IMG/VR virus record: IMGVR_UViG_3300036783_000190
Location: 1-61,746 of that record
Reading direction: 5' to 3' (one strand)
DNA length: 61,746 bases
Source of the DNA: a virus
Lineage: Duplodnaviria; Caudoviricetes
In this document: piece after piece, positions 4,627 through 52,570 of the stretch
Position numbering within the stretch: position 1 is the stretch's first letter
How the letters are laid out: the number at the start of each line of letters is the position of its first letter
Program-made: the position numbers and the translations under genes
Notes under the pieces: generated by a model
The model's input: only the letters and a program-made list of their open reading frames with translations
Told to the model about the DNA's origin: nothing
Database searches by the model: none

Positions 4627-5005
4627 TTTAGTGGTAAAATATTCATATGGGTTCTTAAAACGTCTAAATGCATAATTGCATATTCAAATTATTTTAATTC
4701 GAGAAACGTTGTTACAGAGCGGTTTCTCAACTTTCTCAATAATAGTCAGATAACTCCACGACTGAATTTTGGGAAATTTATGTTATTATGAATATAACTA
4801 AAAACGGACGTAAAAAAGACTCACAGCGTGTACTAAGGTGCAACGAACACCATAGTACCGCTTTCCCTAAAGCGCTAGGGAAAACACCTACTGCAAGTCT
4901 TACATAAATTATAACACATCTTTTGAATGTAGTGACGCGTTTTCCTGTAAAAGTTAAAATTTGGGTATAACGTGTCTTTTGTTCCGAAAAAAGGGGAGCA
5001 AAGTT

Positions 5006-6163
5006 ATGCAAAAAGTGTTAAGTAAAATATCTGATGATATGAATAGTAAGAATATCAATAGAACCCAACTCGTGAAGAGGATAGATATTGATGGAGCGAC
5101 ATTATCAAGATTCTTAAAAGGAAAACATCAACTCATTTTTAACAAATACGGAGTGATTTTAAAGGAAGTTTATCCCGATGATATTAATGCGAGAAGGAGT
5201 TTTTGTCGCGAATATTCCAGCGTCTTGAAGAGACAGGGTAATAAAAAGATAGCTGTATATTATTTACTAGCACACGGTGAATTAGACACTGTATCGGAGC
5301 TGTTAAATGAATCAACAATTAAACATGATTGGGAAACGGTATGCAGATTAATATATTTGCGATACAAAGGTGATTTATCTGGAGATAGCTTATTAAAAGT
5401 TTATAAAGAAAAAGTAGAGGGTATTAAGTCAAAAAATGTTGAATTTGAGATTCTCAAGGGTATAGTTCTTCTTCATATTAGGTATGACCAGAAAAACTAT
5501 AAGTCGATGATTCGACTTTCTGAGGAATTACATGAGAAGGTCGAAGAATTAGAAGACGATTATGCTAAGGCCTTTTTAAAATTTAAAATACAAGAAGCTA
5601 CTATTTATGGATTGTTAACATGTAATGAAATCCAAAAACTAAGAAGTATATGCCATGGAATAATCAATGATGATAACTCAGACATGTTATTCCCTATCTT
5701 TAAAGCAACAGCGTATGGTGTACTAGGAGAATCGTATATTTTTACGGATTATCACAAATCGTTAGGTTATTTAAACTCTGCTACTAGCATTATAGTAAAT
5801 GGTCCTGGCAATCAAATGATGAAGCGGAAAAATATGATATTGAATACGGTCGACTTCTTGAAGATACATTGGAAGGTAGATCTGAACGATATTGAACCTA
5901 AAGATGAAGTTGAAAAGGCTTATTTAGAAATACAAAAAGGCAATGCAAAAAAAGCAATAAGTATTTTAGAAGAGGTATTGAAAACTAAAGGGAAGCTAGG
6001 TGCTTTTGGCTTAACTTATCTAGGAATAGCGAAGGGGAATGACCCACAAATATTAAGCGATGCTTTGGATTTATTCGAGCGATCTTCCGATATTTTTTAT
6101 TCGTATTTGGCGAAGAAAAACCTAGGCATAATGTCCCAAAAATGCTATAATTTAGTTGGGTGA
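5006..6163 (+). CDS. aimR: AimR-family arbitrium receptor (N-terminal HTH, TPR-like helical C-terminus)
   Basis: 385 aa from ATG 5006 after AAGGGGAG; HTH DGATLSRFLKG; followed directly by a secreted peptide gene and the repressor. Confidence 0.85.
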   Translation: MQKVLSKISDDMNSKNINRTQLVKRIDIDGATLSRFLKGKHQLIFNKYGVILKEVYPDDINARRSFCREYSSVLKRQGNKKIAVYYLLAHGELDTVSELLNESTIKHDWETVCRLIYLRYKGDLSGDSLLKVYKEKVEGIKSKNVEFEILKGIVLLHIRYDQKNYKSMIRLSEELHEKVEELEDDYAKAFLKFKIQEATIYGLLTCNEIQKLRSICHGIINDDNSDMLFPIFKATAYGVLGESYIFTDYHKSLGYLNSATSIIVNGPGNQMMKRKNMILNTVDFLKIHWKVDLNDIEPKDEVEKAYLEIQKGNAKKAISILEEVLKTKGKLGAFGLTYLGIAKGNDPQILSDALDLFERSSDIFYSYLAKKNLGIMSQKCYNLVG

Positions 6164-6169
6164 TGCTAA

Positions 6170-6319
6170 ATGAAAAAAGTACTATCGCTAATCACAAGCG
6201 TAGCGTTAGCTGGCGGTTTTTTATTCGCTCCTGCTGACAACAAAGAGCAACCGAAACAAGTTGCTAAAGAACCACAAAATACAATTATGTTTATGTCTGA
6301 TCCTGGGACAGGAATTTAA
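6170..6319 (+). CDS. aimP: AimP arbitrium pro-peptide MKKVLSLITSVALAGGFLFAPADNKEQPKQVAKEPQNTIMFMSDPGTGI
   Basis: Hand-translated; signal peptide plus C-terminal xSDPG motif typical of B. cereus-group arbitrium peptides. Confidence 0.85.
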   Translation: MKKVLSLITSVALAGGFLFAPADNKEQPKQVAKEPQNTIMFMSDPGTGI

Positions 6320-6335
6320 TTTAATAGATATATAA

Positions 6336-6378
6336 GAATGACGTCTTCTCTTGCAGAAGACGTCATTCGTCATTTTTG
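6336..6378 (+). terminator. Terminator after aimP
   Basis: GAATGACGTCTTCT..AGAAGACGTCATTC then T-run. Confidence 0.7.
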
Positions 6379-6383
6379 GGGTT

Positions 6384-6438
6384 ATTGAACTTTTTATCAG
6401 AAACGAAGTAAAGTTCAATGAATGTGAATTAATTCACA
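6384..6438. promoter_or_regulatory. Candidate AimR operator (36-bp spaced inverted repeat) plus 16-bp palindrome
   Basis: ATTGAACTTT-N16-AAAGTTCAAT (6384-6419); TGTGAATTAATTCACA (6423-6438). Confidence 0.5.
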
Positions 6439-6469
6439 AACTACTATGAGAACATTGGAGGATTTAGGG

Positions 6470-6607
6470 ATGGAACAAACTAACATCGAGAAAGAATTGG
6501 TAGAAATTGAAAATAACTTACAAGGTATCTTTAATGCGGCTCAAAATGGGGATGCAGAGTCTTATGAGATGCTATTAAAAATAAAAGAGGCGATCGGTAG
6601 CATTTGA
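6470..6607 (+). CDS. 45-aa AimX-position protein MEQTNIEKELVEIENNLQGIFNAAQNGDAESYEMLLKIKEAIGSI
   Basis: GGAGG RBS; lies after aimP terminator, convergent with the repressor. Confidence 0.6.
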   Translation: MEQTNIEKELVEIENNLQGIFNAAQNGDAESYEMLLKIKEAIGSI

Positions 6608-6612
6608 TGCTA

Positions 6613-6963
6613 TCAATCGCCTGATATTTTAACTAGTTGTTTTATCATCTCAATTAGTTCTTTTTGTTTGTCTGGGTTTTTAGAACGTATATCTATCATT
6701 ACTTGTTCTAAGTCGTCTTTAGCTACTGATTCAGGATTCTTTTCGTCAGATTCTCCTAATACATAAGAAACCGATACATTAGCAAGCTTCGCGATTTCTA
6801 AGCTCATCTTTTTAGATGGGCATTTTGTACTTTCTTCATTCTCCCACATAGAAACAGCAGATCTGCTCTGTATTCCTAACGCTTCAGCGAATTCTCTTTG
6901 GCTAAGTTTTAGTATGTCAGTCCTTATCTCTTTAACACGTCTACTAATTAATTTGTAGTCCAT
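6613..6963 (-). CDS. cI-like phage repressor (XRE HTH, no visible autopeptidase domain)
   Basis: HTH LSQREFAEALG..AVSMWEN; divergent from cro. Confidence 0.85.
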   Translation of the reverse strand: MDYKLISRRVKEIRTDILKLSQREFAEALGIQSRSAVSMWENEESTKCPSKKMSLEIAKLANVSVSYVLGESDEKNPESVAKDDLEQVMIDIRSKNPDKQKELIEMIKQLVKISGD

Positions 6964-7061
6964 TCTTTTTATTCCCCTTAATATTTATTAGTAACTTTTA
7001 CTTACTAACACTAAAAATAATTATATAAATACATTTCCTATATCTTAAATTTAACAAATTT

Positions 7062-7410
7062 GTTCTCAAAATGACAACACTTTTAAAAAAATTTATTTTT
7101 TTAAATTTAGGGGTTCTCAAAAAGAGACTCCCTATGTTATACTCAAATCAACGAAACGAACAAAGGGTGATACCGAATGAAATTAAACACGGAAAAGATT
7201 AGGGAGCTAAGACTTTCTAAAGGTTTCACGCAGGTTGAAGTAGCTGAAACAATGGGTTACACGAACAGAAACTCATATTCTCAAGTAGAAACAGGGAAGC
7301 GTGAACCTAACTTACATAGATTGTCTTTACTCGCTGGTTTGTATGAAGTTACTATTGATGAATTAACAAAGTAGTCTCTTTTTTTACCTCGCAGGTCTCA
7401 AAAAGAGACG
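7062..7410. promoter_or_regulatory. Three 17-bp repressor operators
   Basis: GTTCTCAAAATGACAAC 7062-7078, GTTCTCAAAAAGAGACT 7113-7129, GGTCTCAAAAAGAGACG 7394-7410. Confidence 0.65.
7177..7374 (+). CDS. Cro-like HTH protein
   Basis: 65-aa XRE HTH, first gene of the lytic operon. Confidence 0.85.
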   Translation: MKLNTEKIRELRLSKGFTQVEVAETMGYTNRNSYSQVETGKREPNLHRLSLLAGLYEVTIDELTK

Positions 7411-10726: not shown

Positions 10727-11209
10727 ATGAACTTATATACATTAGCAATCAATTATAAACAAGTGCAAGAAATGATAGAAGATGGAGCCGATTATGAGGT
10801 TGTAAAAGATACATTGCAGTCGATTGAAGAAAGCATTCAAGATAAGTCCCAAAACATAGCGTTACTTATTAAAAATATCAATGCAGATACAGAAGCTATC
10901 AAGGTTGAAGAAAAACGCCTGAGCGAACGGAGAAAGGCACTAGAAAACAAATCAACAAGATTAAAAGATTACTTAAAAGAACAAATGGAGTTTTGTGGTG
11001 TTGACCGGATAAAGAGCACGATTGTTTCAATTGGGATACAGAAGAATCCACCAGTTTTAAACATACAAGATGGAGCAGATATCCCAGAGGAATATTACAG
11101 ACAACGTGATCCAGAAATCGATAAACGTAAATTGATGCAGGACATCAAAGAAGGATTTGAGTTTGACGGAGTAACGATAACGCAAACAACTGGGGTGCGT
11201 ATCCGATGA
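10727..11209 (+). CDS. Siphovirus Gp157-family protein
   Basis: MNLYTL..coiled coil..IQKNPP..IPEEY..IDK motifs. Confidence 0.9.
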   Translation: MNLYTLAINYKQVQEMIEDGADYEVVKDTLQSIEESIQDKSQNIALLIKNINADTEAIKVEEKRLSERRKALENKSTRLKDYLKEQMEFCGVDRIKSTIVSIGIQKNPPVLNIQDGADIPEEYYRQRDPEIDKRKLMQDIKEGFEFDGVTITQTTGVRIR

Positions 11210-11889
11210 ATAGAAGCGAAACGATTACTGAATTAGCTAAAGCATTGGTGAAATTCAATTCAGAGGTTACAAAAATAGCAAAGGATGCAGACAATCCTTT
11301 CTTTAAAAACAATTATGCAACGCTAGACACGATTATAGATGAAATTAGACCAATCCTTTCTAAACACGGATTAAGTATCATGCAAATACCAAGTGGTGAC
11401 GGTCAGAACGTGACGTTAAAAACACTTCTCCTACATGAAAGTGGTGAATGGTTAGAAAGTGATGCATTAACAATGAAGCCAGTTAAAAACGATCCGCAAG
11501 CCGTAGGTAGTTGCATAACATACGCTCGCCGCTATTCGTTAGCAGCGTTCCTCAGCTTGAATACCGGTGAAGATGATGACGGAAACGGTGCTACTTATGG
11601 AAAAGGTAACAAACCAAATCAGAAAAGTAACAGTGGACAAAGTTCAAATAAACCGCCAAGCAATGGAAATAACGGTGGTAACGGCAAAGCATCCGAGAAA
11701 CAGTTAAAAATGATACACGCGAAAATAGCGCACATTTCAGCTTTAGCAAAGACGGATAAACAAACTATTGAGGATACATTGAAAGGCAACATCGGAACTG
11801 AAAACCTAAGTGAGATTAGCTCACAGATTGCATCAAAAGCAATTGAGTTACTGATGGGATGGGAAAAACAATATAGTCAAGCAGGATAA
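11206..11889 (+). CDS. ERF-family single-strand annealing protein
   Basis: GSCITYARRYSLAAFLSLNTGEDDDG. Confidence 0.93.
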   Translation: MNRSETITELAKALVKFNSEVTKIAKDADNPFFKNNYATLDTIIDEIRPILSKHGLSIMQIPSGDGQNVTLKTLLLHESGEWLESDALTMKPVKNDPQAVGSCITYARRYSLAAFLSLNTGEDDDGNGATYGKGNKPNQKSNSGQSSNKPPSNGNNGGNGKASEKQLKMIHAKIAHISALAKTDKQTIEDTLKGNIGTENLSEISSQIASKAIELLMGWEKQYSQAG

Positions 11890-14768: not shown

Positions 14769-15037
14769 GAAGTCAATTAAGCTTTGACGACATATTGGGT
14801 ACTTTCGATTACAAAGCAAAGAGCACGGCCGAGCAATTCCTAGCAAAGCCTAGCGTCATAACGACATACGCTGTGGAATTCTATGACAAGGAAGAAAAGC
14901 AACGTATTGATTGGTTCGATGTAAAAACAGAGAGCAAAGCATGGAGCGCGGCAGTGAAAGAACATGGTAAAGGTATTCAGAAGATTGGGATAACTAGTTC
15001 TGAACGTACGAGAGATGAAATCATGGCGTTGGATTAG
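14765..15037 (+). CDS. Hypothetical phage protein
   Basis: Coupled to dnaB. Confidence 0.7.
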   Translation: MRSQLSFDDILGTFDYKAKSTAEQFLAKPSVITTYAVEFYDKEEKQRIDWFDVKTESKAWSAAVKEHGKGIQKIGITSSERTRDEIMALD

Positions 15038-15049
15038 GAGGGAGAAGTA

Positions 15050-15499
15050 GTGGCATTAAATCGCTGGTTAACTAGTGAGGAATATGCAAGGGCAGCAGCT
15101 AACGGGGTAAACAGAGAAAGATTGAACAGTCGTGTCTATGATTTTGAATGGGATTTAGAGAAAGCAATAACAGCTCCGATCGGTACAGTTAGGCATGAAT
15201 ACGAAAGGAAACATGCAAAATGGCTCAAAGTAGCATCAGAAAACGGTATAAACATTAGCACTTTTTACAGCAGATTATGGTTAGGGTGGGAGTGTCAAGA
15301 AGCAGCAACGAAGCCTGTAAGACAAAAGAGCAAAGCAGAAAAGAAGTGGTTGAATATCGCTAAACAAAATGGAATTAGCTATCAAACTTTTATGTCACGA
15401 ATTCATACACGGAAATGGGAGTTGGAAAAAGCGGCGACTACACCGCCAATTAATACGGGAAGGCGTTGCTCAGTAAAAGTTAAGGAGGAAGCGTTGTGA
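15050..15499 (+). CDS. Protein with three A..NGI...TF..R...GW..E.A.T.P repeats
   Basis: Internal repeats; paralog of next ORF. Confidence 0.75.
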   Translation: MALNRWLTSEEYARAAANGVNRERLNSRVYDFEWDLEKAITAPIGTVRHEYERKHAKWLKVASENGINISTFYSRLWLGWECQEAATKPVRQKSKAEKKWLNIAKQNGISYQTFMSRIHTRKWELEKAATTPPINTGRRCSVKVKEEAL

Positions 15500-15903
15500 A
15501 TTATTACGAAACTTTCATCACTGATGAGGATTACGAGAAAGCTGCTAAGAACGGCATTAGCAAATCAAATGTATATCAGCGGGTTAATGAGTATGGATGG
15601 GAGTTAGAGCGCGCTATAACGGTACCTGTAAGAAAGAAGAAAGGCGGAATTTACGCTGGGATGATAACTTTCGCTGAACAAAACGGAATAAGCAAACCGA
15701 CTTTTTTCAAAAGAGTTAAAAACGGTATGGATCTATATGAAGCGGCTACAAAACCAGTAGGGTACGCAACGTATTTGGAATTAGCAAGAAAGAACGGAAT
15801 TAAGGACGTTACATTTTATCAACGGATTACTAGAGGAATGAAACCTTACGAAGCAGCTACAAAGCCAGTGGTGAGTCGTAAGAAAGTACAGCAGATAAGC
15901 TAG
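15496..15903 (+). CDS. Paralogous NGI-repeat protein
   Basis: Same repeated motif. Confidence 0.75.
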   Translation: MNYYETFITDEDYEKAAKNGISKSNVYQRVNEYGWELERAITVPVRKKKGGIYAGMITFAEQNGISKPTFFKRVKNGMDLYEAATKPVGYATYLELARKNGIKDVTFYQRITRGMKPYEAATKPVVSRKKVQQIS

Positions 15904-15911
15904 GAGGCAAC

Positions 15912-16049
15912 ATGGAGCAAGAGCAAGACGTTTTAATCAACAAATTAATCGATAATCACATATACAAGCTACCGGATGGGCGCGATCTCTTTGAGGGGAG
16001 TTGCGAGGAACTGGCCGGGCTACTAAAAGGAGATGGGGAGAAGGAATGA
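15912..16049 (+). CDS. FbpA-like (Fur-regulated basic protein family) 45-aa protein
   Basis: AGGAGG RBS; DVLINKLIDNHIYKLPDGRDLFE..EEL. Confidence 0.55.
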   Translation: MEQEQDVLINKLIDNHIYKLPDGRDLFEGSCEELAGLLKGDGEKE

Positions 16050-16270
16050 GACATACACGCAATAGACAACTAATAAAGCTAGGTATTGATGGTGATTTAA
16101 ACAACATCAGAATAGACGAGAAGAGAAACCCAAATAGTTTCTGGTTTAGTTGGCACAACTTAGACCCTACATTCAAGTGGCACCGAGATTTTCACGGGAT
16201 GAACATAGTGTCTTTTAACCGTAAAGGTGAATCATTTAAAACTTATGTGATAAAGGGGAGAAAACAATGA
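16046..16270 (+). CDS. MRHTRNRQL-family hypothetical
   Basis: Shares N-terminus and LD..FKWHRDF with 16589-16834. Confidence 0.7.
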   Translation: MRHTRNRQLIKLGIDGDLNNIRIDEKRNPNSFWFSWHNLDPTFKWHRDFHGMNIVSFNRKGESFKTYVIKGRKQ

Positions 16271-16336
16271 AATATACACAGCATGGCACGTTTGAAGTAA
16301 CTCAAATATTAGCGGAAACAAAGGAGACTGAAGAGA

Positions 16337-16576
16337 ATGGCAACTAAGATCATTGTTTATACGAAGAATAATTGTGGAGATTGCAAACGAGCAAAATTCA
16401 TGTTGAAACATTGTCCGGTTGATGTGGAAATTGAGGAAATTAATGTTGAGTTAAAAGAAAATGAACACCATATAAAGCAACAAGGATTAATGACATTACC
16501 TGCTTTTCTGATGGAAGACGGAAATATCATACACGGATTTCACGAAGGGAAGATCATGAACGCATTAGGACTGTAG
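16337..16576 (+). CDS. Glutaredoxin/NrdH-like protein
   Basis: VYTKNNCGDC..TLP..IHGF. Confidence 0.85.
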   Translation: MATKIIVYTKNNCGDCKRAKFMLKHCPVDVEIEEINVELKENEHHIKQQGLMTLPAFLMEDGNIIHGFHEGKIMNALGL

Positions 16577-16588
16577 GAGGTTTTTATA

Positions 16589-16834
16589 ATGAGACATACT
16601 CGAAATAGACAATTAGCAAAAGCTCATAAGGATCCATTATTCATGTGGATGAATGAACCAACTGACAAGATCGAATTACAAAGGCATTGGATGAAGTTAG
16701 GGCTTAACCCTATTTTAGACAAAAATTTCAAATGGCATCGTGATTTCGTCTGGGAGATAGAAAAATACTGGGAGAGTTACATTACTGTAGGTACGTACGG
16801 AAGGGATGACTTCAAAGAAATTCCAATTAAATAG
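16589..16834 (+). CDS. MRHTRNRQL-family hypothetical
   Basis: AGGAGG RBS; paralog of 16046. Confidence 0.7.
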   Translation: MRHTRNRQLAKAHKDPLFMWMNEPTDKIELQRHWMKLGLNPILDKNFKWHRDFVWEIEKYWESYITVGTYGRDDFKEIPIK

Positions 16835-16844
16835 GAGGGATTGA

Positions 16845-17012
16845 ATGAAGAAAGAAACCAAAATACAGCTGGAAGGTGAGCTCAAAGTAGTAGAGAGTGA
16901 GATTCGTAAGATGGAATATCACCTAGTTGGATTGGATAACGAGAAGCGGAAGACGAAGCTTTCCTTGGAAGTGTTGAAGAAGCAAAAAGAGAAATTGAAA
17001 AGTTACTTATAA
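16845..17012 (+). CDS. 55-aa coiled-coil hypothetical
   Basis: AGGAGG RBS; hand-translated MKKETKIQLEGELK... Confidence 0.6.
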   Translation: MKKETKIQLEGELKVVESEIRKMEYHLVGLDNEKRKTKLSLEVLKKQKEKLKSYL

Positions 17013-17025
17013 GGAGCGGGATGGA

Positions 17026-17358
17026 ATGAATTTTAAAGATTATCAAACAGCAGTCACAAGAACATTTGCAGTAGGAAGAACATACGAGGAGAATGCTACA
17101 AACTACGCTATGGGATTATGTGGAGAAGCTGGGGAAGTTACGGACCATATCAAGAAGGCAGTATATCATGGCCACAATTTAAATGAAGATGAAGTAGAAA
17201 AGGAATTAGGCGATGTACTTTGGTACCTAGCAGCATTAGCAGAAACGCACCATCTTGATTTAAATGAGATCGCGGAGAAGAACATTTATAAGTTAAAGAA
17301 GCGATTCCCGAACGGATTTAGTGAAGAAGACAGTAAGAAACGGGTGGATATGAAGTAA
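17026..17358 (+). CDS. MazG-like nucleotide pyrophosphohydrolase
   Basis: GLCGEAGEV..KELGDVLWYL..KNIYKLKKRFP. Confidence 0.9.
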   Translation: MNFKDYQTAVTRTFAVGRTYEENATNYAMGLCGEAGEVTDHIKKAVYHGHNLNEDEVEKELGDVLWYLAALAETHHLDLNEIAEKNIYKLKKRFPNGFSEEDSKKRVDMK

Positions 17359-17392
17359 GACCAAATTTGAATTTTGTTAAGAAATGGGGAAT

Positions 17393-17542
17393 ATGAAGAT
17401 GAATAAAATAACTAGAGAAGAATTTTTAAATTTGATGTATGACATGAAATTAGCAGGAATTATAACATTAGAACAATATGCAATTTACAGCGATAAAGGA
17501 TTAAGCACTTTAGAGTTTAAAGAACAAAAGTGTGATTGTTAA
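17393..17542 (+). CDS. 49-aa cassette ORF
   Basis: Hand-translated; stop codon overlaps junction motif at 17541. Confidence 0.55.
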   Translation: MKMNKITREEFLNLMYDMKLAGIITLEQYAIYSDKGLSTLEFKEQKCDC

Positions 17543-17574
17543 CAAAAGCGTTATTTGAATAGACAGGGGATGTA

Positions 17575-17886
17575 ATGATGGAAAAATCCGAGTTGAAAGA
17601 AATTTGTAGGGATACAGTGAAAGGTGTTTACCGTGATGTTGTAGCGTATGACAGTAACGGTTTTTATATGAGGTATATCGGGGAACGCATATCGCCATTA
17701 GTAAGAATAATTAAGGAACAACAGAAAGAAATTGAAAGATTGAAAGGTGAAAATTCAACTGAACAAAAGTGTGAAGACTGCTATAGGTGCGATGGAAAAG
17801 GTGTTGGTCTGGATTGGGGCGCTATGAATTTTTGGGAATGTGATGTTTGTAACGGAACTGGTGAATTGGACTCTGAAGAAAACTAA
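17575..17886 (+). CDS. Hypothetical with DnaJ-type CxxCxGxG zinc finger
   Basis: CYRCDGKG...CDVCNGTG. Confidence 0.7.
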   Translation: MMEKSELKEICRDTVKGVYRDVVAYDSNGFYMRYIGERISPLVRIIKEQQKEIERLKGENSTEQKCEDCYRCDGKGVGLDWGAMNFWECDVCNGTGELDSEEN

Positions 17887-17947
17887 ACAAAATAGTTATT
17901 GTATAGACAAAAGTAAACAGAACCCGTTATAACTAGCGGGTTCTGCG

Positions 17948-18010
17948 TACAAGGAATACAAGGAATACAAGGAATACAAGGAATACAAGGAATACAAGGA
18001 ATACAAGGTA
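17948..18010. repeat. 9-bp tandem repeat (TACAAGGAA) x6 + 1 degenerate
   Basis: Direct reading. Confidence 0.97.
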
Positions 18011-18260
18011 ACTGGTCCAGAGCAACCAGGGTATTCACTTGGATAATATTACTATATTCGAAGGGGATAAAAAGGTTAATGAAAACTAAACAAAATCCTT
18101 ATTTAAATAAAAGAAACCCCGATTGTCTGCGGGGCTCCTAAGGGTAATCGTCAAGTAATGACGTACTCGACTAATTAACAATATCATGAATTTTTTGGTA
18201 AAAATACTGGTAAATGTGTCCAAATGGATGGGGACATTATTTTAAACAAAAACGCTATTT

Positions 18261-19094
18261 GTGCGACACGTTTCCTCATAAGTGTGCAAACACGAAATAG
18301 GAGGGTTATCAACTTGATAACAACAACTTATTGACTGAAAGTAGGAATGAAAGCCGTCAGGTTGAGCTGAAACTACTTATCTGATACTCCTACATGCAAG
18401 GCGTGATAGTAGTCACAAATTGTATGAAGCTAGGTGAAGTCGACTGAACAAAACCTAAGTGAGAAATCATATGGTAATGGATAGGTCGGGGTGCTACAAA
18501 ATATCTAAGGTGAGAATGTCCTAACGGACTGGCAAACTTGCGAATGTACGGGTCTAAACGTTTAATATATCAGAAATGTATATGTCGTTAATGACGACGT
18601 TATCTACCGAAAAGTAAGATTAAATAGTATGAAATTCGGAACATCTAACGATGAGGATGTAAAGATAACAGGCTTAAAGCAAGCACCTAAGGATGTATGT
18701 ATAGCTAGGTCAATCGGAACGTGGTAAGCAAGAAACTGTCATCAACGTCTACTAACGGACAGATGCATATAAGGTTCTAACGAACCGAAATTGCTTCATT
18801 CTTGTGAAGGTGGGGACATAGTACCGAAGAAGCATGTAATAAATGTGGAGGGATAGTCCCTAGTCTTGTTCTTTGAAAACTAAATCAATTAGATGTAACT
18901 CACAGGATCGAGTAAGATGATGTGACCTTTCGTAAGAAAGGGGAATTAATACGTTGGTGAGTACAACATTGTTTGTAATCTAGTTGCTTTAGTATAGAAG
19001 AATAAGATGGGGCGCTGTATGCGATGAAAGTCGCACGTACAGTGTTAAGCGGGGGAAAAGATGGAGATAACTTCAAAGTCTTACCTATCGCAAC
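18261..19094 (+). mobile_element. ORF-less group II intron (~834 nt, bacterial class B-like)
   Basis: 5' GTGCGACACG; D5 GGCGCTGTATGCGAT-GAAA-GTCGCACGTACAGTGTT; D6 ending CCTATCGCAAC; EBS1 AAATAG (~18622) matches 5' exon CTATTT; short D4 with SD remnant and no RT ORF. Confidence 0.9.
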
Positions 19095-19116
19095 TAGTAG
19101 AAAAGGAGAACTTGAA

Positions 19117-19233
19117 ATGAAAGAAACTTGGAATGAGCAAGAACGTTTAGAAATTGAAGCGGAGCAAGAAATGATCGCGCAAGTAGAAAGAGAAAACTGG
19201 ATGGAAGCAAATAATATTAGCTATGAGTATTAA
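19117..19233 (+). CDS. 38-aa cassette ORF MKETWNEQERLEIEAEQE...
   Basis: AAGGAG RBS in the intron 3' exon. Confidence 0.6.
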   Translation: MKETWNEQERLEIEAEQEMIAQVERENWMEANNISYEY

Positions 19234-19408
19234 TGTTCGGAATTTGATTTGAGTTTGCAGCTGCAGTTTAAGGATAATGTTCGGTTTTTAATAAATATTT
19301 CATTTTGTAGAAATCTTTTTTTGAATGAAGTTACTAAAATCAATTGATAATGTTTACCACGAAGAATACAATTGAATAAAGTAACTTTATTCAAAGGAGA
19401 GATATATA

Positions 19409-19744
19409 ATGACTGAACAAAACAATCGTGGCGGTAAACGAGAAGGCGCAGGACGTAAAGCAATTGGTGAGACAAGAAAAGTATCGTTAACTTTACCGAC
19501 TGAGTTATGGAGTGAAATTGAGTTTCTATGTGAATACGATGGAGAGAGTCAATCTAAAGTGATTCGAAAAATGTTAGAAAAGCAGATACCTAATACAAAA
19601 ATGATACAGGATATAAAAGAATTTCAGAATGCTAACATTGGTGCGAATATTACAAGTGATGAGGATGTCGTAGATTTTTGCGTGAAATTGGTTCATGAGA
19701 TCTTTATACAGAAGAAACATAAATATGAACCGGATTTAAAATAA
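19409..19744 (+). CDS. Ribbon-helix-helix-like DNA-binding protein
   Basis: RGGKREGAGRK then KVSLTLP..SQSKVIR. Confidence 0.7.
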   Translation: MTEQNNRGGKREGAGRKAIGETRKVSLTLPTELWSEIEFLCEYDGESQSKVIRKMLEKQIPNTKMIQDIKEFQNANIGANITSDEDVVDFCVKLVHEIFIQKKHKYEPDLK

Positions 19745-19846
19745 AAGAGCAGCTAGCAAAAGCTAACTGCTCTCCAGAAAAGCATTAAGAAGGAAGTTCA
19801 GAACTCAAGTGTATTTATAGTATGGACAAGATTTAGGAATTTATTC
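19743..19846 (-). ncRNA. SigG-promoter sRNA unit 1
   Basis: Minus-strand GAATA-17-CATACTA; terminator GAGCAGTTAGC-TTTT-GCTAGCTGCTC-TTTT. Confidence 0.6.
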
Positions 19847-19854
19847 AAGGAGGA

Positions 19855-20169
19855 ATGGATATGAATTTATATCTCCAAAAGATTAAAGATAAATGTGATG
19901 CATCAGTTGAAAAAGCATACACAAGTAATCCTTTAGTTATGTTAAAAACAGATACAATCTATTGGTTACTAGATCAATCAGAAGAAAATGAGAAACGAAA
20001 AGGTATTATACAAGCAAATTATCATGAATATAGCGAGCTAGAAAAGAAACGGAGAAAGTTACTTGAGGAAAATGAGTTCCTAAAAGATGATGTCCATGTT
20101 AGGAATGAGCGTGTCGATGAACTTGAGAAGGAATTACAAGAACTCAAAAGAGCAGCTAGCAAAAGCTAA
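19855..20169 (+). CDS. Coiled-coil hypothetical
   Basis: AAGGAGG RBS. Confidence 0.7.
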   Translation: MDMNLYLQKIKDKCDASVEKAYTSNPLVMLKTDTIYWLLDQSEENEKRKGIIQANYHEYSELEKKRRKLLEENEFLKDDVHVRNERVDELEKELQELKRAASKS

Positions 20170-20226
20170 CTGCTCAGGTTAAGAAATGGGTTGTCTACAG
20201 TATTGACGGAATATTGAGTTTTATTC
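20146..20226 (-). ncRNA. SigG-promoter sRNA unit 2
   Basis: GAATA-17-AATACTG; 30-bp terminator identical to unit 1. Confidence 0.5.
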
Positions 20227-20242
20227 AGGAGAGGAAGAGAAA

Positions 20243-20431
20243 ATGAGTAAAGAACAAATATTAAAAAAAGAAATAATTAAATGGGTGAAAACCATGAATA
20301 GTGATGACCCAGAACAATTTAATTCATGTGTAATGGAATTGGAAGATATGTTGTTAGGATATATTGAGAAAAATATGGAGGTAGAGGGAAATGAAATCAG
20401 AAATACATCCATTCAGAATGATAGTAAGTAA
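20243..20431 (+). CDS. Hypothetical
   Basis: RBS and ORF. Confidence 0.6.
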   Translation: MSKEQILKKEIIKWVKTMNSDDPEQFNSCVMELEDMLLGYIEKNMEVEGNEIRNTSIQNDSK

Positions 20432-20573
20432 TGAAGATATCGCTGTAGGTAATAAGGTCAAATTCTCGGATGGTGAAGAAGGAACAGTAACTTCGATTAG
20501 ATCCATAAAATTCATAAGTATGACTAAAGTTGAAGTAATTGGCAGAGCTAAGTTTGAAAACTCAACAAAATAA
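20391..20573 (+). CDS. Hypothetical (small beta-barrel-like)
   Basis: GGAGG upstream; stop lies in junction motif. Confidence 0.6.
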   Translation: MKSEIHPFRMIVSNEDIAVGNKVKFSDGEEGTVTSIRSIKFISMTKVEVIGRAKFENSTK

Positions 20574-20602
20574 TCCTTTGAATAGAAAGCGAGGTTAGAA
20601 GA

Positions 20603-20776
20603 ATGGAAGATAACGTAAAGCTATTGGGTGCAGACGGAATGTGTGGAATGGAGTTTACAGGAAGTAAGGTTAATGTTTATAACGTTGAAGGATATGTAAT
20701 GGAATGGATGATAACAAGGGAGCATGTTCAGGAAGTTATTGATTTTCTTGAAGAGCGCAAAGGACAAATGGAATAG
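20603..20776 (+). CDS. 57-aa hypothetical
   Basis: Preceded by GAATAGAAAGCGAGGTTAG, repeated at 20771. Confidence 0.6.
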   Translation: MEDNVKLLGADGMCGMEFTGSKVNVYNVEGYVMEWMITREHVQEVIDFLEERKGQME

Positions 20777-20793
20777 AAAGCGAGGTTAGGAAA

Positions 20794-21051
20794 ATGGATG
20801 ATTTGAAAGTGCAGGACCTAAAAAAACGAATGGCAGCAGCGGTAAATGAACCTGATAAGGACAAGCAAAGGGAAATGGTACAGGAAATCATGGATAGCCC
20901 GGAAATGGTTAGATTTAAGGAGTTATTCCTAAAGGTATGGGATCAGATTAAAGAATTTGTAATTAAATGTGAAAGAACGATAAGGAAGTATAAGCGTACC
21001 GTTTCATTCAAAAGACAACACATTAAACATAAAAGATGGTGTGTTAATTGA
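20794..21051 (+). CDS. Hypothetical
   Basis: Same 19-nt leader as previous ORF. Confidence 0.65.
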   Translation: MDDLKVQDLKKRMAAAVNEPDKDKQREMVQEIMDSPEMVRFKELFLKVWDQIKEFVIKCERTIRKYKRTVSFKRQHIKHKRWCVN

Positions 21052-21470
21052 TTAAAAAGAGAAAAGCTACAACTAAGAAAAAGAACAAACCGCGAATTAA
21101 GCAGAAGAAAGTAACTTATGACGGAATTCATTTCGATTCACAGTCAGAAATGAATTATTACAAGTATTTGAAAAGCAGGGATGATGTTAGTCACATAGAG
21201 TGTCATCCCGCTTTCACTCTTATACCATCTTTTGAGATTAAGAGCAGCATAACGAAGTCAGGGAAGTCGAAAAAGTCAGCTATGAGGTTTACACCTGATT
21301 TTAAAGTAACGTACTCAGATGGGCGTGTAGAAGTGGTTGATGTTAAAGGAAGCAAACGAGCTATCAATGAAGGATTTCCGATAAGAAAGAAATTATGGGA
21401 GTACCTAAACAAACAGGAGTTAATCGTTGTGATATGGGACAAGAAGTTAGGTGAATGGACAAGATCATAA
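21048..21470 (+). CDS. DUF1064 PD-(D/E)XK nuclease (resolvase candidate)
   Basis: DGIHFDSQSE..YY..FTPDF..VVDVKG. Confidence 0.85.
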   Translation: MIKKRKATTKKKNKPRIKQKKVTYDGIHFDSQSEMNYYKYLKSRDDVSHIECHPAFTLIPSFEIKSSITKSGKSKKSAMRFTPDFKVTYSDGRVEVVDVKGSKRAINEGFPIRKKLWEYLNKQELIVVIWDKKLGEWTRS

Positions 21471-21657
21471 AGGGGTGAGTGTCATTAGAAGATACGAAGG
21501 TACACGAGAATATATGTTGTTTCGAAAAGAACCAGGATTTGAACATGACCAAAGAGTTTGGTTGTTTGATGTATTTACGTATCAGGAGTTAATGAACCAT
21601 TTAAATGATGGATGGCAGTTTAGTAGAGGATGTACTGTTAAGAAGGCAACAGCTTAA
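21451..21657 (+). CDS. Hypothetical
   Basis: ORF track; start uncertain. Confidence 0.55.
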   Translation: MNGQDHKGVSVIRRYEGTREYMLFRKEPGFEHDQRVWLFDVFTYQELMNHLNDGWQFSRGCTVKKATA

Positions 21658-21796
21658 TGGATAACGGAACAATGCGCAATAGTGTGGTGGGGGCTATGTT
21701 AATGCGTGATGTTCCCTTATTCAACAATGAGATAGTAAAATTTCACGTACCTTATGTGATGTTAAAAAGACAAATTCGAAATAGGGGGATTCTAGT

Positions 21797-22174
21797 TTGG
21801 GACAAAAACAATTAGTGACTGAAGATGATATTAGAGAAATGGTTATTGAGGAATTGCAGAAGTATCGTGTACTTAAAGTTCGATTTCATAATCAACAAGA
21901 AAGAACAGCATTCGGTGCAGAATTATTGTTTCCTGAATTAAAACCAAAGCCGGATGGTCAAGAGGAAAAGTACATCAGATATATTCAAATAAAAAGAGCG
22001 TTGGAAGAAGCGCTAGATGAGGACGAAAGAAAAATACTCGAAATGAAATATATGAACACAAAAGTGTTGAATGACGATTACATTTATACGGTTATTGGCA
22101 TTAAAAGAAGAACATTCTACCGAAAGAAAAAGTCAGCTGTAATTAACTTTGCAGATGCATTAGGGATGATATGA
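21797..22174 (+). CDS. ArpU/RinA-family late transcription activator
   Basis: ALDEDERKILEMKY..IGIKRRTFYRKKKSAV..A; TGGCAC-like repeats follow. Confidence 0.88.
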   Translation: MGQKQLVTEDDIREMVIEELQKYRVLKVRFHNQQERTAFGAELLFPELKPKPDGQEEKYIRYIQIKRALEEALDEDERKILEMKYMNTKVLNDDYIYTVIGIKRRTFYRKKKSAVINFADALGMI

Positions 22175-22229
22175 AATGGCACTTTTGGGCTACCATATTG
22201 GGTACCTTTCAACAACTAAATAAAAAGTA

Positions 22230-23085
22230 CGATTATCTCATGAAGAAACGCTCTTTGAAAAGAAGATACGCTTCATGGGATAGCGTGCCCATTATAATAA
22301 CGTTACTCGGTGACGCGGAGGCTAGAGGGGATAAGAGCTTCCCGAAATTATTTATATTTTACTTCTCATTGAGTGTATAAGCGTAACGCCTTTCGTTTGT
22401 AGGCTCATAGGTAGTAAAACCACGCCTGTCATGTGGATTCTTGATTTCTATGTTAAAACTGGATCGTTTGCCAAATGGGGATGTTGGTCTGTTCGATTGA
22501 ATGGACCACGTCTCCTAGCAAGAAGAAATAACTCAATTAAATTAGTAATTACTCACAACAATAACTAATATAAGTCAGGTTGTTCTTCTTAAACGATTAA
22601 ACGAGCAGAGAGCTTCCGCTCTTTGTTTGAGCCAATACAGCTGAACCTTCCCCTCAGTCTTGTGTATTGGTTCAAACAAGGCGTAGGAAGAAACATATGC
22701 GTCTGGATATAATCGCATTGTGTAAACGTAAATGGTGAAAATGACATTAAGTAGCCGACTCCACGGAGTATAAACGAGAAATGGTTTCGACTGTTTCCCT
22801 AGCTAAATCAATGATGGTGTAAGGTGCATATTCGCGAAGGTGAGGGTTCGATTCCCTCAAGTTGATTTAGTGAGGGAAGCTGTTGATATCAGCTAAAGAT
22901 TATAAAGAGCATATTCTTGCTCTTCTCCCAGTCACCGACACAGGGCGTGTAGCCATACTATTGATTCGGTGATTTGGAGAAGGTTGAGAGTGCTCAGCCT
23001 TAATCTAAGAGAAACTTTGCCATTTGTTTTCTCTCTTTTCTCCCATCCCCTTTAGAGCTGTCACTTCGGTGATGGCTTTTTTGTT
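22230..23085 (+). ncRNA. Non-coding late leader made of tandem long hairpins, including a tRNA-like domain (22794-22878)
   Basis: At least 7 long inverted repeats; T-arm GAGGG-TTCGATT-CCCTC; terminator GCTGTCAC-TTCG-GTGATGGC-TTTTTT. Confidence 0.6.
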
Positions 23086-23486
23086 CTTTGTAAACTAGAG
23101 ATTAGCCAATATATATGTTAGTTCCTAGTTTAGAAAGAATAAGTTTCTTTGTTATGTAGAAATTACACATTAAACCAGTAAAAATTTGAATGAGACAAGA
23201 ATACATTAATAACTGAGACGTATTCATTCTTTATAATCGTATTGGACGAGCGCCTTATAGGGCTCTTTTTTATTGCACATAAGGAATTCCCAAACATACA
23301 ATATCGAGTCAATGCCAACCAACTTATTCCTTTTCCGAGAGCTATATATATTCCGCTATAAAGCTCTTTTATGTTGCACCATTAGAACGGGCAAGGCATT
23401 GTCGTATACCTTATACTCAGAAGCTTAGGACACTTTATAGTGTTCTTTTTTTATTGAACAAAATGGACATTTGATTAGGAGGATGA

Positions 23487-48159: not shown

Positions 48160-48354
48160 ATGTTAACTACATTCATTTCTTTAGGAGCACTAGGAACAAT
48201 TACAATTGGTGGAGCGATATTAGAAAAGAATCTTGTAAAAAATGATCACGTTGCAGCAGCTAAACTTTTAAGTGATGGAATGTATCACGGAATGCGAATA
48301 GGCGGAGTTTGTTTCATTGGCTATGTATTTATCAAAATCTTAATCATGTTTTAG
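48160..48354 (+). CDS. Small 2-TM membrane protein
   Basis: GGGGAG RBS; hydrophobic. Confidence 0.75.
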   Translation: MLTTFISLGALGTITIGGAILEKNLVKNDHVAAAKLLSDGMYHGMRIGGVCFIGYVFIKILIMF

Positions 48355-48365
48355 GGGGTGCTCCT

Positions 48366-49532
48366 ATGGAGATTTTAAAAAAGTGGCTTCATAAACAAAG
48401 TTTAAAGAATCAACTTATAGAGGTATTTGGAAAAGCAGGTTTATATGTGGACCATCAAACAAGAGGTGGTAAAGTACCAATTTATCCAAAAATACATGAC
48501 ATTTCCTCCACACCAGAAAAGGTTCGATATATATTTACAATTCCGAATGGTTTGGATCCTAAGACCATTGAAAAGAAATGGTTTTGCTTTCAACAAATAT
48601 TAGGACGTAACGTTGCCATTCAAGGCGATATTAAACGGTTTGTACTTAATGTATTTCATTCAGATGCAGGGTTAAAACAATACAACTACAGTTATAAGAA
48701 ATGGCAGCCATTACTAAAACAACATCGTCTTCCTGTTGTAGTAGGTCGGGACCAATTCGGAAATATGATTGTGTACGATATGGTTGAAGCCAATACACCA
48801 CATTTATTAATCGCAGGAGAAACAGGTAGTGGTAAAAGTAGTATGGTACGTGTTGTTCTGTCCACACTCATTCAACACATGTCTCCTGATAAATTACATT
48901 TGTATCTGGGCGACTTGAAAAATTCCGAATTTCATTTCTTGAGAAGGGTTAAACACGTAAAAGAAGTGTGTATGGAAGAAATCGAAATGAAGATAATGTT
49001 GCAGAAAGTGTGGAAGGAAATACGAGAAAGAAGAAAATTAATGGAAAAGTATGAAGTGGATCATATTGATGAATACAACAAAACGAATCCTGACAATCAG
49101 AAACCATATATCTTACTTGCGATTGATGAAGTGGCCATGTTACAAGATGAAAAAGAATGTATGTCTACAATAGAAAAGATATCGGCAGTCGGCAGGGTGC
49201 TTGGTGTCTTCCTCATGCTTTCCATGCAACGTCCTGATGCAAAAGTATTAGATGGCAAGTTAAAGTTGAATATGACCGTCAGAATGGGTTTTAAATGCGA
49301 TAGTACAATCAACAGTAATATCACGGGTACACCTGGATCAGAACGCTTGGAGAAATCGGGCCAAATGATTCTAAAACTGAATGGATTAAAGAAAGTGCAA
49401 GCTCCTTATTTAGAATTAAGCAAAGCGAAACAAATTGTTGAGTCGTATCGCATACCAAAAGAGGATATGACAATTCAGAATCCTCCACAAGAAGAGATTC
49501 CATTGTTCGGGGTGTTAGAAGATGAGGAATAG
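48366..49532 (+). CDS. FtsK/SpoIIIE-family ATPase
   Basis: PHLLIAGETGSGKS, DLK, AIDEV, MQRP. Confidence 0.92.
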   Translation: MEILKKWLHKQSLKNQLIEVFGKAGLYVDHQTRGGKVPIYPKIHDISSTPEKVRYIFTIPNGLDPKTIEKKWFCFQQILGRNVAIQGDIKRFVLNVFHSDAGLKQYNYSYKKWQPLLKQHRLPVVVGRDQFGNMIVYDMVEANTPHLLIAGETGSGKSSMVRVVLSTLIQHMSPDKLHLYLGDLKNSEFHFLRRVKHVKEVCMEEIEMKIMLQKVWKEIRERRKLMEKYEVDHIDEYNKTNPDNQKPYILLAIDEVAMLQDEKECMSTIEKISAVGRVLGVFLMLSMQRPDAKVLDGKLKLNMTVRMGFKCDSTINSNITGTPGSERLEKSGQMILKLNGLKKVQAPYLELSKAKQIVESYRIPKEDMTIQNPPQEEIPLFGVLEDEE

Positions 49533-51390: not shown

Positions 51391-51750
51391 CTATTCTCGA
51401 CTTTTCTTCGATTCAAGCACTTGTTTTACAGCGTTTTTTACTAACTTTTGTTTTGGTGTAGGTAATGAAGCAACTTTTTCTTCGATTAACATATTTATTA
51501 CTTCATAGATTTTCATATCTTCAATTGTAGCAAGTGTTGATATTGCTGTGTGCGTTTCTAATGAGACACGGAAAGATTTCGGTAACTCTTTCGTAGTTAG
51601 TTTTCTCTTTGGTTTTTCAAAGAGCTTATCATCATCAGGGAAACTACGTTCTTGATTTTCTTTACTTTCGGGTGTGAAAGTTACTGATCCTTCAGTTTTC
51701 TTTCTTCTCATACCAAGTTGTTCTTTGTCTATATTCAATTTGTTATCCAT
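51391..51750 (-). CDS. Putative centromere-binding protein (type Ib, RHH-like)
   Basis: Overlaps parA stop; KSFRVSLETH..IYEVINMLI. Confidence 0.7.
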   Translation of the reverse strand: MDNKLNIDKEQLGMRRKKTEGSVTFTPESKENQERSFPDDDKLFEKPKRKLTTKELPKSFRVSLETHTAISTLATIEDMKIYEVINMLIEEKVASLPTPKQKLVKNAVKQVLESKKSRE

Positions 51751-52570
51751 TTACTGTTGTCATTCCTTCCAAAATCTCGATTCTCTTTTCGACTTCACCT
51801 GCAATATTTTGGTATACAGTATGAACGTTTTTATCATGAACATCTTTTAGATTATAAGTGATTCCTGTTCTATCAAATCTCTTTAAGCGTGCCATCTGTT
51901 TAATGATATTACTGAACACATTAGCTTTGCCAAAAATCTCTTCAGCTTCTTGAAGGATATCTTTATCAATTTCATTACCGTTTTGCATTAGTACAGGTAA
52001 AGCCCCAATAATTTCTAATGGTAAATTGTAATCATCTGCTAACGAGAATACATGTTCAACGTATTTCTGAGCACCTTTTAATGATCTTTCTTGTGTTTGT
52101 AAAATAACCATTACATAGTCACTAGCGACTAATGCACTGTCTGCAAATTTATTTAATTGTGGTGGCACATCGATAAAAATGTAATCGTAATTTCCTTTGA
52201 TTGCACTTAATTGTTTTGCGAAATATGTATCCTGTGAGAAGTCATCCTCAAAATTTCTGAAAAGGAATTTTTCATATGTTTGTAAATCCTCGTAAGAAGG
52301 AAGTAAGTCTAAGTTAGGCAGTACATTAATTAGCGCACTCTGCAAGTTTGCATCTATAAGTGACATAGCTAATGTTCTTTTGAATTCTGGTTCGATTGAA
52401 TATATTTTTTTCATTGTGTTAAATAGTAAATCAGTCGCATTTGCTTGTGGATCTAAATCTACTAATAAAGTTTTCTTTCCTTGTTTCGCGAATGTATAAG
52501 CCAACATTACAGCATTGGTAGTTTTTCCAACTCCACCTTTGAAGTTCCCAGTTGTGATAACTTTGCACAT
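51743..52570 (-). CDS. parA: ParA/Soj-family ATPase, copy 2
   Basis: NFKGGVGKTT, VDLDPQAN, IFIDVPP. Confidence 0.96.
   Translation of the reverse strand: MCKVITTGNFKGGVGKTTNAVMLAYTFAKQGKKTLLVDLDPQANATDLLFNTMKKIYSIEPEFKRTLAMSLIDANLQSALINVLPNLDLLPSYEDLQTYEKFLFRNFEDDFSQDTYFAKQLSAIKGNYDYIFIDVPPQLNKFADSALVASDYVMVILQTQERSLKGAQKYVEHVFSLADDYNLPLEIIGALPVLMQNGNEIDKDILQEAEEIFGKANVFSNIIKQMARLKRFDRTGITYNLKDVHDKNVHTVYQNIAGEVEKRIEILEGMTTVNG

Follow-up and report, generated by a model that had tools for sequence, protein, structure and literature searches.

Ever since the modular theory was put forward, it has been argued whether phage mosaics arise at conserved linkers dedicated to that role or through illegitimate joining at random, with selection acting afterwards. 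The modular theory of Susskind and Botstein and the 'boundary sequences' of lambdoid phages both place conserved boundary sequences at the joints of the mosaic. Here we analyse a locus where this question takes an unusually sharp form: the early accessory-gene region of a tailed phage (Duplodnaviria; Caudoviricetes), IMG/VR record IMGVR_UViG_3300036783_000190, whose whole stretch of 61,746 bases we call the window. Short junction elements, or linkers, are strung along this region; each carries its own six-base core (N6), which we term its address, and one of them is occupied by a group II intron. An initial annotation, made from the letters alone, had seen there an integron-like cassette array, driven either by a tyrosine recombinase acting in trans or by the intron itself. 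We find that the linkers form a lineage-specific, oriented, slot-addressed family that marks mosaic joints, and that a family of group II introns, with guides matched to the addresses, homes to the same 16 nucleotides.

Several described systems come close to one or the other side of this arrangement. Stoperators, the repressor sites of some phages, are oriented with transcription and are mostly intergenic. Introns of group IIC recognise a stem-loop and a short intron-binding site (IBS1), with no second exon-binding site (EBS2). Published accounts, cited here and below from extracts of the papers, tell us that one IIC lineage targets the attC sites of integrons (PMC3001079), and that IIC introns target intrinsic terminators (PMC2504315). 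The Bacillus cereus group hosts introns of multi-copy types and of types devoid of an open reading frame (ORF), among which B.c.I10, B.c.I7, B.c.I1 and B.th.I2 (PMC2504315, PMC1196294), and the conservation of their targets is described as limited to IBS1, IBS2 and IBS3 (PMC2504315). In phages, where group II introns had been considered absent, a survey of 29,015 genomes found 20, two of them apparently intergenic (PMC12350094).

The linker follows the consensus (A/G)AC(A/C)AAA-N6-TTT. It is 16 nt long, asymmetric, and present eight times in the window, always on the + strand:

17359..17374, + strand: junction element of the TTTGAA class (GACCAAA-TTTGAA-TTT), with a variant left arm, directly after the stop codon of a MazG-like gene.
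17541..17556, + strand: junction element of the GCGTTA class; the TAA stop of ORF 17384-17542 overlaps its left arm, and a ribosome-binding site (RBS) follows, then an ATG at 17575.
17886..17901, + strand: junction element of the TAGTTA class, ending in TTG; the stop of ORF 17575-17886 overlaps it, and a non-coding unit with a 9-bp tandem repeat follows.
18089..18104, + strand: junction element of the TCCTTA class, with an orphan GAAAACTAA remnant of a gene end before it and a conserved non-coding unit (unit B) after it.
18245..18260, + strand: junction element of the ACGCTA class, which is the end of the 5' exon (IBS2 + IBS1) of the resident intron.
19290..19305, + strand: degenerate junction element of the ATTTCA class (AATAAAT-ATTTCA-TTT), compared with sites 6584 of locus L011 and 9174 of locus L018.
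20564..20579, + strand: junction element of the TAATCC class; the upstream stop lies inside N6 and the right arm GAATAGAAAGCGAGG carries the RBS of the next gene.
23457..23472, + strand: junction element of the TGGACA class, in the leader of the first late gene, after an ArpU-like region.

All eight are confined to 17.36-23.47 kb, about 6 kb of the window. Seven had been picked out by the initial annotation and all belong to this one element, the copy at 23457 being new. The pattern AACAAAANNNNNNTTT has eight matches where dinucleotide shuffles average 1.74 +/- 1.32, and 0 of 100 shuffles get to eight; the tighter AACAAAANNNNTATT matches four times, as against 0.30, again with 0 of 100 shuffles reaching that count, so that the suspected enrichment over background is real. 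These four tighter matches are all on the + strand within 17541-18259 (720 bases), and a search for repeats groups the motif sites independently, as families D2-D4. Even the variant copies have counterparts elsewhere: AAATTTGAATTTTG, the core of the site at 17359, occurs 34 times in related loci, in varied flanks and sometimes with the full AACAAAA arm, and an island common to the contigs of relatives, 17353-17392, surrounds this TTTGAA-class site; the degenerate site at 19290 resembles L011:6584 and L018:9174 down to its right arm TGTAGAAA.

Not every trait first ascribed to the element is found. None of the 18 inverted pairs detected in 15000-23000 coincides with a motif site, and only the AAA/TTT of the arms is self-complementary, which disposes of the idea of inverted arms. 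A consensus scan placed no promoter or terminator at the 16-mers; terminator- or promoter-like islands lie apart from them, at 18112-18139, 19744-19775 and 20150-20175. That stop codons sit at the left arm is correct at 17541 and 17886, while at 20564 the stop falls inside N6; the RBS does follow the right arm as proposed. Nor is there one tiny gene per unit throughout: the stretch between 19290 and 20564 contains four genes.

The pattern extends to relatives, which we collected in two ways. The DUF1064 protein encoded downstream of the array served as an anchor to assemble 24 IMG/VR loci, to which phages IEBH and MY192 and the window were added, giving 27 sources and 496,811 nt. We drew a second, independent sample by scanning for the TAATCC 16-mer of the site at 20564, present in at least 120 IMG/VR contigs; 80 of these loci were analysed, some of the 80 being chance matches in unrelated contigs. 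In the 27 sources the strict motif lies 87 times on the strand of the genes and twice on the other; the second sample adds 110 class sites on that same strand and 0 on the opposite one. The N6 cores of the 27 sources fall into about ten recurrent classes: TTTGAA, GCGTTA, TAGTTA, TTCTTA, TCTTTA, TCGTTA/TCCTTA, ACGCTA/ATGCTA, ACTTCA, ATTTCA, TAATCC and TGGACA/TAGACA. Their order is fixed there. All 150 ordered pairs within loci agree, no class occurs twice in a locus, and the eight sites of the window conform to the common order. In a 5.4-Mb genome of B. thuringiensis, by contrast, the loose pattern stays at background (39 matches, versus 32 for a reversed control), and the seven class-type 16-mers present are all in two one-strand clusters of about 1-2.5 kb, one of which also contains a copy of the intron. 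The element is therefore a property of the phage lineage and not a general signal of the host.

What lies on each side of a given address is usually not conserved. When linkers of the same class are compared between loci (474 pairs), neither flank is shared in 387 pairs, the right flank only in 62, the left only in 17 and both in 8. Around the 16-mer, near-identity extends over a median of 23 nt (367 pairs), and among 81 non-redundant sites conservation reaches from about -23 to +14 relative to the end of the TTT, more weakly than in the 16-mer itself, with nothing beyond. Besides the 16-mer and the stop codon, this block comprises an AAAA(C/T)T and an RBS-like (G/T)AATAGAAAGGAG. Its left extension tracks the left flank (identity 0.90 versus 0.33) and its right arm tracks the right flank (0.93 versus 0.53), which places the joints within the 16-mer or at its edges. 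Contigs from other organisms align to the window in short islands alone, with joints at 17390/17392, 17539/17540, 17560/17561, 17877, 17900, 18081, 19287 and 19313/19314. As the same addresses recur in the same order while the genes and regulatory units that flank them are unrelated, the linkers are mosaic joints; the initial annotation was right in expecting the breakpoints of relatives at the motif, which separates exchangeable units. The motif has at most a slight tendency to travel with its left flank, as an attC site does: the corresponding test of asymmetry gave only a small bias (51% versus 40% same class).

Some of the units between linkers contain no gene, and after about one site in ten comes a hairpin or a reverse-oriented unit instead of an RBS (17886 and 18089 in the window, L014:6434, L018:6874; judged by eye). 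The first such unit of the window, unit A (17902-18088), has no + strand ORF. It holds about seven to eight copies of a 9-bp tandem repeat of the TACAAGGAA type (17948-18010) and, at 17913-17950, a hairpin whose T-run is on the - strand; that strand also has a promoter-like site (18079-18051). Only the right-hand 100 nt or so of unit A are conserved, in eight loci, at 75-85% identity. Its AAGGA-rich repeat might act as a sponge for an RNA-binding protein. Unit B (18105-18244), between the TCCTTA and ACGCTA linkers, recurs in 14 loci, over 85% alike and with long blocks that do not vary. It has a hairpin at 18112-18139, terminator-like when read on the - strand, and contains small palindromes GTCAAGTAATGAC and a + strand promoter-like site (18158-18187); its left linker varies (TCC, TCG, TAG, AAG or none) and its right linker is nearly always ACGCTA. 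Unit B may be a regulated promoter or a small-RNA cassette.

Further along, an exact 30-nt direct repeat (19743-19772 and 20146-20175) forms strong hairpins that score as - strand terminators; one copy follows a stop codon, and the other lies within the end of ORF 19855-20169. The islands around them (19732-19856 and 20185-20251) show 85-97% conservation in many Bacillus phages with differing flanks and represent a second kind of conserved junction island. The stretch of about 1.1 kb that separates the ArpU-like region from the TGGACA linker (22380-23456) has no convincing ORF and no Rfam match at gathering scores; TATAGAAATTACACATTAAACGT, just upstream of that linker, is strongly conserved in relatives and may be the late promoter.

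The second line of evidence comes from the intron, whose components are as follows:

18261..19094, + strand: group II intron, ORF-less, 834 nt, starting 5' GUGCG; recognised by Rfam, with its boundaries taken from empty alleles and from plasmid copies about 96% identical.
18559..18563, + strand: EBS2, CGTTT, pairing with AAACG at junction positions -11..-7 and covarying across copies with the first three bases of N6; in an unpaired loop of the domain 1 (D1) fold.
18622..18627, + strand: EBS1, AAATAG, pairing with CTATTT at junction positions -6..-1 and covarying with the last three bases of N6; in a hairpin loop closed by CCGAA/UUCGG.
19117..19233, + strand: small gene of 38 amino acids (aa) downstream of the intron, its RBS in the 3' exon.

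Rfam recognises domains D1-D4 of a group II intron at 18322-18500 (RF02004, 118.9 bits, gathering score 34.5) and D5/D6 at 19010-19094 (RF00029, 57.1 bits, gathering score 40). Beyond the intron, a permissive Rfam scan of 17300-20700 returned only four matches, with E-values from 0.00038 (overlapping D5) to 4.1, far below gathering. The boundaries at 18261 and 19094 follow from the intron-free alleles of loci L152 and L123, where AACAAAAACGCTATTT runs into TATTAGAAAAGGAG and the same small gene (95% identity) comes immediately after; removal of the intron thus restores a typical junction, as had been anticipated. In L152 a paralogue of the 38-aa gene sits after a TTTGAA junction. The catalytic triad of D5 is CGC, and since the triad of group II introns is "usually AGC or CGC" (PMC12350094) it is not diagnostic of group IIC. 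B.th.I2 was considered as the identity of the intron and ruled out, being 935 bp long and located inside a virD4 homologue (PMC1196294). Inside the intron, TTGTTCTTTGAAAACTAAA (18866-18884) resembles TTTGAAAACTCAACAAAA, the left extension of the linker, at 20550 (repeat family D20), a likeness that may be due to chance. The phage collection holds only partial relatives of the intron, 0 of 15 records covering at least 80% of it, while 722 plasmid records match it, 96 over at least 80% of its length, the best at about 96% identity in B. thuringiensis and B. mycoides. Copies at different sites and on different replicons are about 93-96% identical. Contigs assembled from RNA libraries (four runs) cover the intron and none has the joint from 18260 to 19095, though contigs cannot show absence of splicing.

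Where these copies sit is telling. We took their flanks from four plasmids, four IMG/VR contigs and six genome contigs, and from further places in the same records. Among 17 distinct insertions, 16 lie after AACAAAA-N6-NTT and the exception, L048, after TATAAAA; the last three target bases are TTT in 14, ATT in two and CTT in one. The occupied addresses are ACGCTA, AAGCTA, TAGTTA, GCGTTA and TAATCC, and the 17 insertion sites have no hairpin in common before them. An alignment of nine ORF-less copies shows two short variable patches, EBS2 and EBS1, both in predicted loops of domain 1. In 15 copies the exon- and intron-binding sites pair at 158 of 165 positions. At the N6 positions they do so in 85 of 90, when shuffles give a mean of 59.9 and a maximum of 82, with 0 of 10,000 reaching 85; because copies of one variant are related by descent, what counts most is that five types of variant each match their own address. 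The 16-nt linker is the homing site of this intron family, then, and the occupation of one junction by an intron that specifically targets the motif had been rightly seen, together with its parallel to the group IIC introns found at attC.

The longer copies of about 2.6 kb (L031, L039) have an insert near position 710, which in L031 encodes a 528-aa protein where Pfam finds only RVT_1, a reverse transcriptase (RT) domain. L039, a contig of Bacillus pfraonensis whose RT-bearing intron (reverse strand, 4675-7267) lies in a TAATCC linker, is the one clear exception to the matching: its EBS2/EBS1 (GGATT/AAATAA) fit not the occupied TAATCC linker but an empty TCCTTA linker 130 nt downstream, and the order of these two, TAATCC before TCCTTA, is itself atypical. 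The mismatch could reflect recent retargeting, ectopic insertion or recombination between copies. Occupancy is rare: one of 83 class sites in the anchor set, that of the window, and 0 of 191 in the second set.

Which enzymes could act on these sites? The virus record is the sole contig of its genome and is rated 100% complete by CheckV. Its early region matches, in short pieces, 34 phage records, 0 of which cover 80% of the query; the temperate phages of B. cereus, B. thuringiensis and B. anthracis among them include IEBH, 250, PfNC7401 and MY192. Six-frame searches of the complete record gave 0 matches at E<=1 to Phage_integrase (PF00589), in a search positive in 14 of 14 control genomes, and likewise 0 at E<=1 to Resolvase (PF00239) and to RVT_1 (PF00078). 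Together with the annotation, these results indicate a non-integrating, plasmid-type temperate phage, one of the B. cereus group. The earlier statement that neither a recombinase nor an RT is encoded holds for integrase, resolvase and RT, and fails in one respect, the presence of a candidate catalyst of short-homology exchange:

11206..11889, + strand: single-strand annealing recombinase of the ERF family (Pfam PF04404, E 3.2e-33).
10727-11209: Gp157, upstream of the ERF annealase (Pfam PF05565, E 9e-49).

The genes annotated in the phage comprise AimR, Rha, ParA, FtsK/SpoIIIE, an AIPR protein, a zeta-toxin-family protein, YopX, DUF1064, the small subunit of terminase, and tail and lysin genes. 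The AimR-like receptor at 4961-6163 (Pfam PF22871, E 3.4e-35) probably means that the lysis-lysogeny decision uses arbitrium-type peptide signalling. Toward the far end of the phage-plasmid lie FtsK/SpoIIIE (48309-49532), ParA (51743-52570), an AIPR-family protein of the abortive-infection type (56486-57691) and a zeta-toxin-family kinase (57956-58699), likely a cargo for defence and maintenance. Ahead of the array, tandem pairs of paralogous small genes (15050-15499 with 15496-15903; 16001-16270 with 16589-16834) are joined by tight stop-RBS contacts with no linker motif, unlike the linker-type junctions further on.

The explanation that we consider probable, by a small measure, is that the linkers are ordered recombination sites at mosaic joints, through which modules with like addresses are exchanged, and that a co-diversified intron family exploits them. 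The early accessory-gene region would be built on a scaffold of short linkers in one orientation, each with its own N6 address, and modules would be swapped between co-resident phages or prophages by homology-dependent recombination at linkers of like address. We favour homology because the array keeps its register, no site-specific recombinase is present and the short island is the sole thing shared; gene order would be kept because exchange requires the same address, and as the shared identity is only about 23 nt, the Erf-type annealase of the phage is the likely catalyst. The intron family, with its RT-bearing 2.6-kb and ORF-less 834-nt members, has diversified its EBS2 and EBS1, which read AAA+N3 and N3+TTT, to at least five addresses. 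The ORF-less intron of the window, in a phage that has no RT, would depend on an RT supplied in trans; it would splice from the early transcript, restoring the junction of AACAAAAACGCTATTT with TAGTAGAAAAGG ahead of the RBS of the next gene.

Several facts weigh against this explanation. With about 23 nt, the island just reaches, or falls short of, the length that RecA-type recombination usually requires, and is a marginal substrate; no recombinant was observed. Homology alone leaves the common arms AACAAAA and TTT unexplained, which hints at an additional function or at a reader of the arms; taken with the marginal length, this makes room for an arm-reading factor or for a larger role of the intron. 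Order is less strict in the second sample, with 214 consistent pairs against 10 inconsistent ones and three duplications of a class; eight of 46 multi-site loci depart from it, partly because of our own grouping of similar cores. Junctions with a motif prove broken in every informative comparison (223 of 223), but early junctions without one are broken too, in 1413 of 1780, and at equal spacing class the counts become 181 of 181 versus 183 of 193; with crude ORF calls and non-independent pairs, these counts distinguish motif from non-motif junctions only weakly, and the early region is mosaic as a whole. Finally, flanks are not tied to one address: of the partners with a common left flank, 433 carry the same class, 128 a different N6 and 296 no strict motif, and for the right flank the figures are 864, 325 and 980. 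Genes therefore also move between slots or lose the motif.

If the arms are read by something, the linker could first of all be a regulatory box, a cis site for a factor of the phage or host: a stoperator-like site, a site of antitermination or processing, or a translational operator of early mRNA. Joints would then coincide with it only because both are intergenic, and the intron would exploit a conserved sequence. We judge this unlikely, while giving it a real share of credit. It accounts for the strict co-orientation with transcription, for the fixed register with the upstream stop and the downstream RBS, for arms that are common to all classes when recombination alone does not demand them, and for the TGGACA copy, which stands in a 5' leader and not after a gene; the stoperators of mycobacteriophages provide the precedent of asymmetric sites in many copies across a genome (PMC9283540). 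The spacer of a protein-binding site should drift, however, and N6 is kept in each slot even when both flanks have been replaced. The tenth or so of sites followed by hairpins or reverse-oriented units rather than an RBS, the confinement to about 6 kb instead of the whole genome, and the want of a candidate binding protein also speak against it. A likeness of GAAAACTAAACAA to the boxA-type antitermination signals of rRNA leaders was considered and is unsupported: the boxA-like pattern TTTGAAAACTNAACAA has 0 matches in a B. thuringiensis genome.

Alternatively, the intron might drive the exchange, an idea already present in the initial annotation. Resident introns would provide 0.8-2.6 kb of portable homology, or two introns flanking a gene would behave as a composite retroelement; units made of a gene and its 3' linker would move, the introns being later lost precisely, and the linker would be conserved mainly as a target of the intron. 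The conserved block from -23 to +14 has about the size of the DNA target of a group II intron, as known from work on Ll.LtrB, and the joints fall within or at the edges of a 16-mer that includes the insertion point. The radiation of the family over at least five addresses, the 93-96% identity of its copies across sites and replicons, and the mismatch of L039 with the linker it occupies, which would fit recombination between copies, agree with such a role. Yet occupancy is very low (1/83 and 0/191), two introns flanking a gene are seen in no locus, and insertion cannot create the target site. The insertion of L048 where there is no AAC arm implies that the intron may not require that arm. Recombination between near-identical introns at different addresses should moreover scramble an order that is largely kept. 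Capture by the intron is weakened, and we hold it to be rather improbable.

A bolder version would make of linkers and introns together an RNA-guided system of cassette exchange, the equivalent of the integron among retroelements. The six-base address of a slot would be read by intron variants, which would move units of a gene with its 3' linker between phages and plasmids, through recombination between resident copies or composite mobilisation by two introns. The array would be held in register by the address code, as a natural analogue of cassette exchange between heterospecific sites. We think this quite improbable. As to the integron-like mechanism first proposed, in which a tyrosine recombinase in trans would cross over in N6 and identity of the core would limit exchange to like addresses (as with the heterospecific spacers of lox or FRT), the layout of 7-nt arm, 6-nt core and arm, the joints inside the 16-mer and the fixed order that like-with-like exchange would explain do not save it from being highly improbable, since integrase, attC structure and free cassette order are all missing: neither Phage_integrase nor Resolvase has a match in the complete phage, the inverted repetition of the arms stops at AAA/TTT, there is no attC-like palindrome, attI or cassette promoter Pc, and the 180-aa protein annotated 'integrase' near ArpU in MY192 has no counterpart in the window.

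The exchange of like-addressed modules at linkers is the explanation we favour, and the locus makes a clean case in which to test it and, with it, the old question of mosaicism: about ten addressed linkers keep a fixed order across many phages, prophages and plasmids of the B. cereus group, and in most comparisons the DNA on both sides of them is unrelated. An intron family whose guide loops have diversified to related targets amounts to a natural 'retargeting' series, and the addresses are ready-made handles for phage engineering in Bacillus.

How, then, does this locus stand with respect to known systems? An integron keeps its integrase beside the array, where the phage record has 0 matches to PF00589; its attC is an imperfect palindrome of tens of bases, the linker a 16-nt asymmetric motif with no hairpin; and capture at a single attI frees the order of cassettes, which the linker classes keep (150 of 150 pairs, and 214 versus 10). 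With the IIC introns of integrons our intron shares the specialisation of a lineage on a repeated intergenic element between gene cassettes, and insertion in the transcribed orientation, which would let splicing remove it. It differs from them by two base-paired guides, with a covarying EBS2, by a linear 16-nt target in place of the attC hairpin, and by a locus that has no integron integrase. It resembles the introns of the B. cereus group, whose ORF-less copies are presumed to be mobilised in trans and which reside in plasmids and prophages of B. cereus, B. thuringiensis and B. mycoides; the extracts of these accounts mention no recurrent phage junction motif and no EBS variants matched to targets (PMC2504315, PMC1196294). 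The introns of the phage survey are likewise in phages, ORF-less and possibly mobilised in trans, and the extract consulted reports no linker family (PMC12350094). More generally, the portions of full-text literature that we searched describe neither a family of junction motifs nor address-matched EBS variants, in running text only, so that figures or supplements might show related targets.

Mycobacteriophage stoperators are, like the linkers, short asymmetric sites in many copies (PMC9283540). They are near-identical, spread over the genome and bound by the immunity repressor, whereas the linkers have slot-specific cores, occupy one region and have no known binder. The nearest kin are the boundary sequences and the promoter-early stem-loops (PeSLs): there too, the genes of a hyperplastic region are bounded by short conserved sequences and are exchanged between relatives, and homologous recombination has been proposed, as the extracts have it (PMC2839356, PMC4122927). 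The PeSLs of T4-type phages are composite promoter-terminator motifs (PMC4122927), and the linkers have neither promoter nor hairpin. What sets the linkers apart from both is that they span only about 16-23 nt, bear some ten N6 addresses in a set order, and serve as the homing sites of an intron family.

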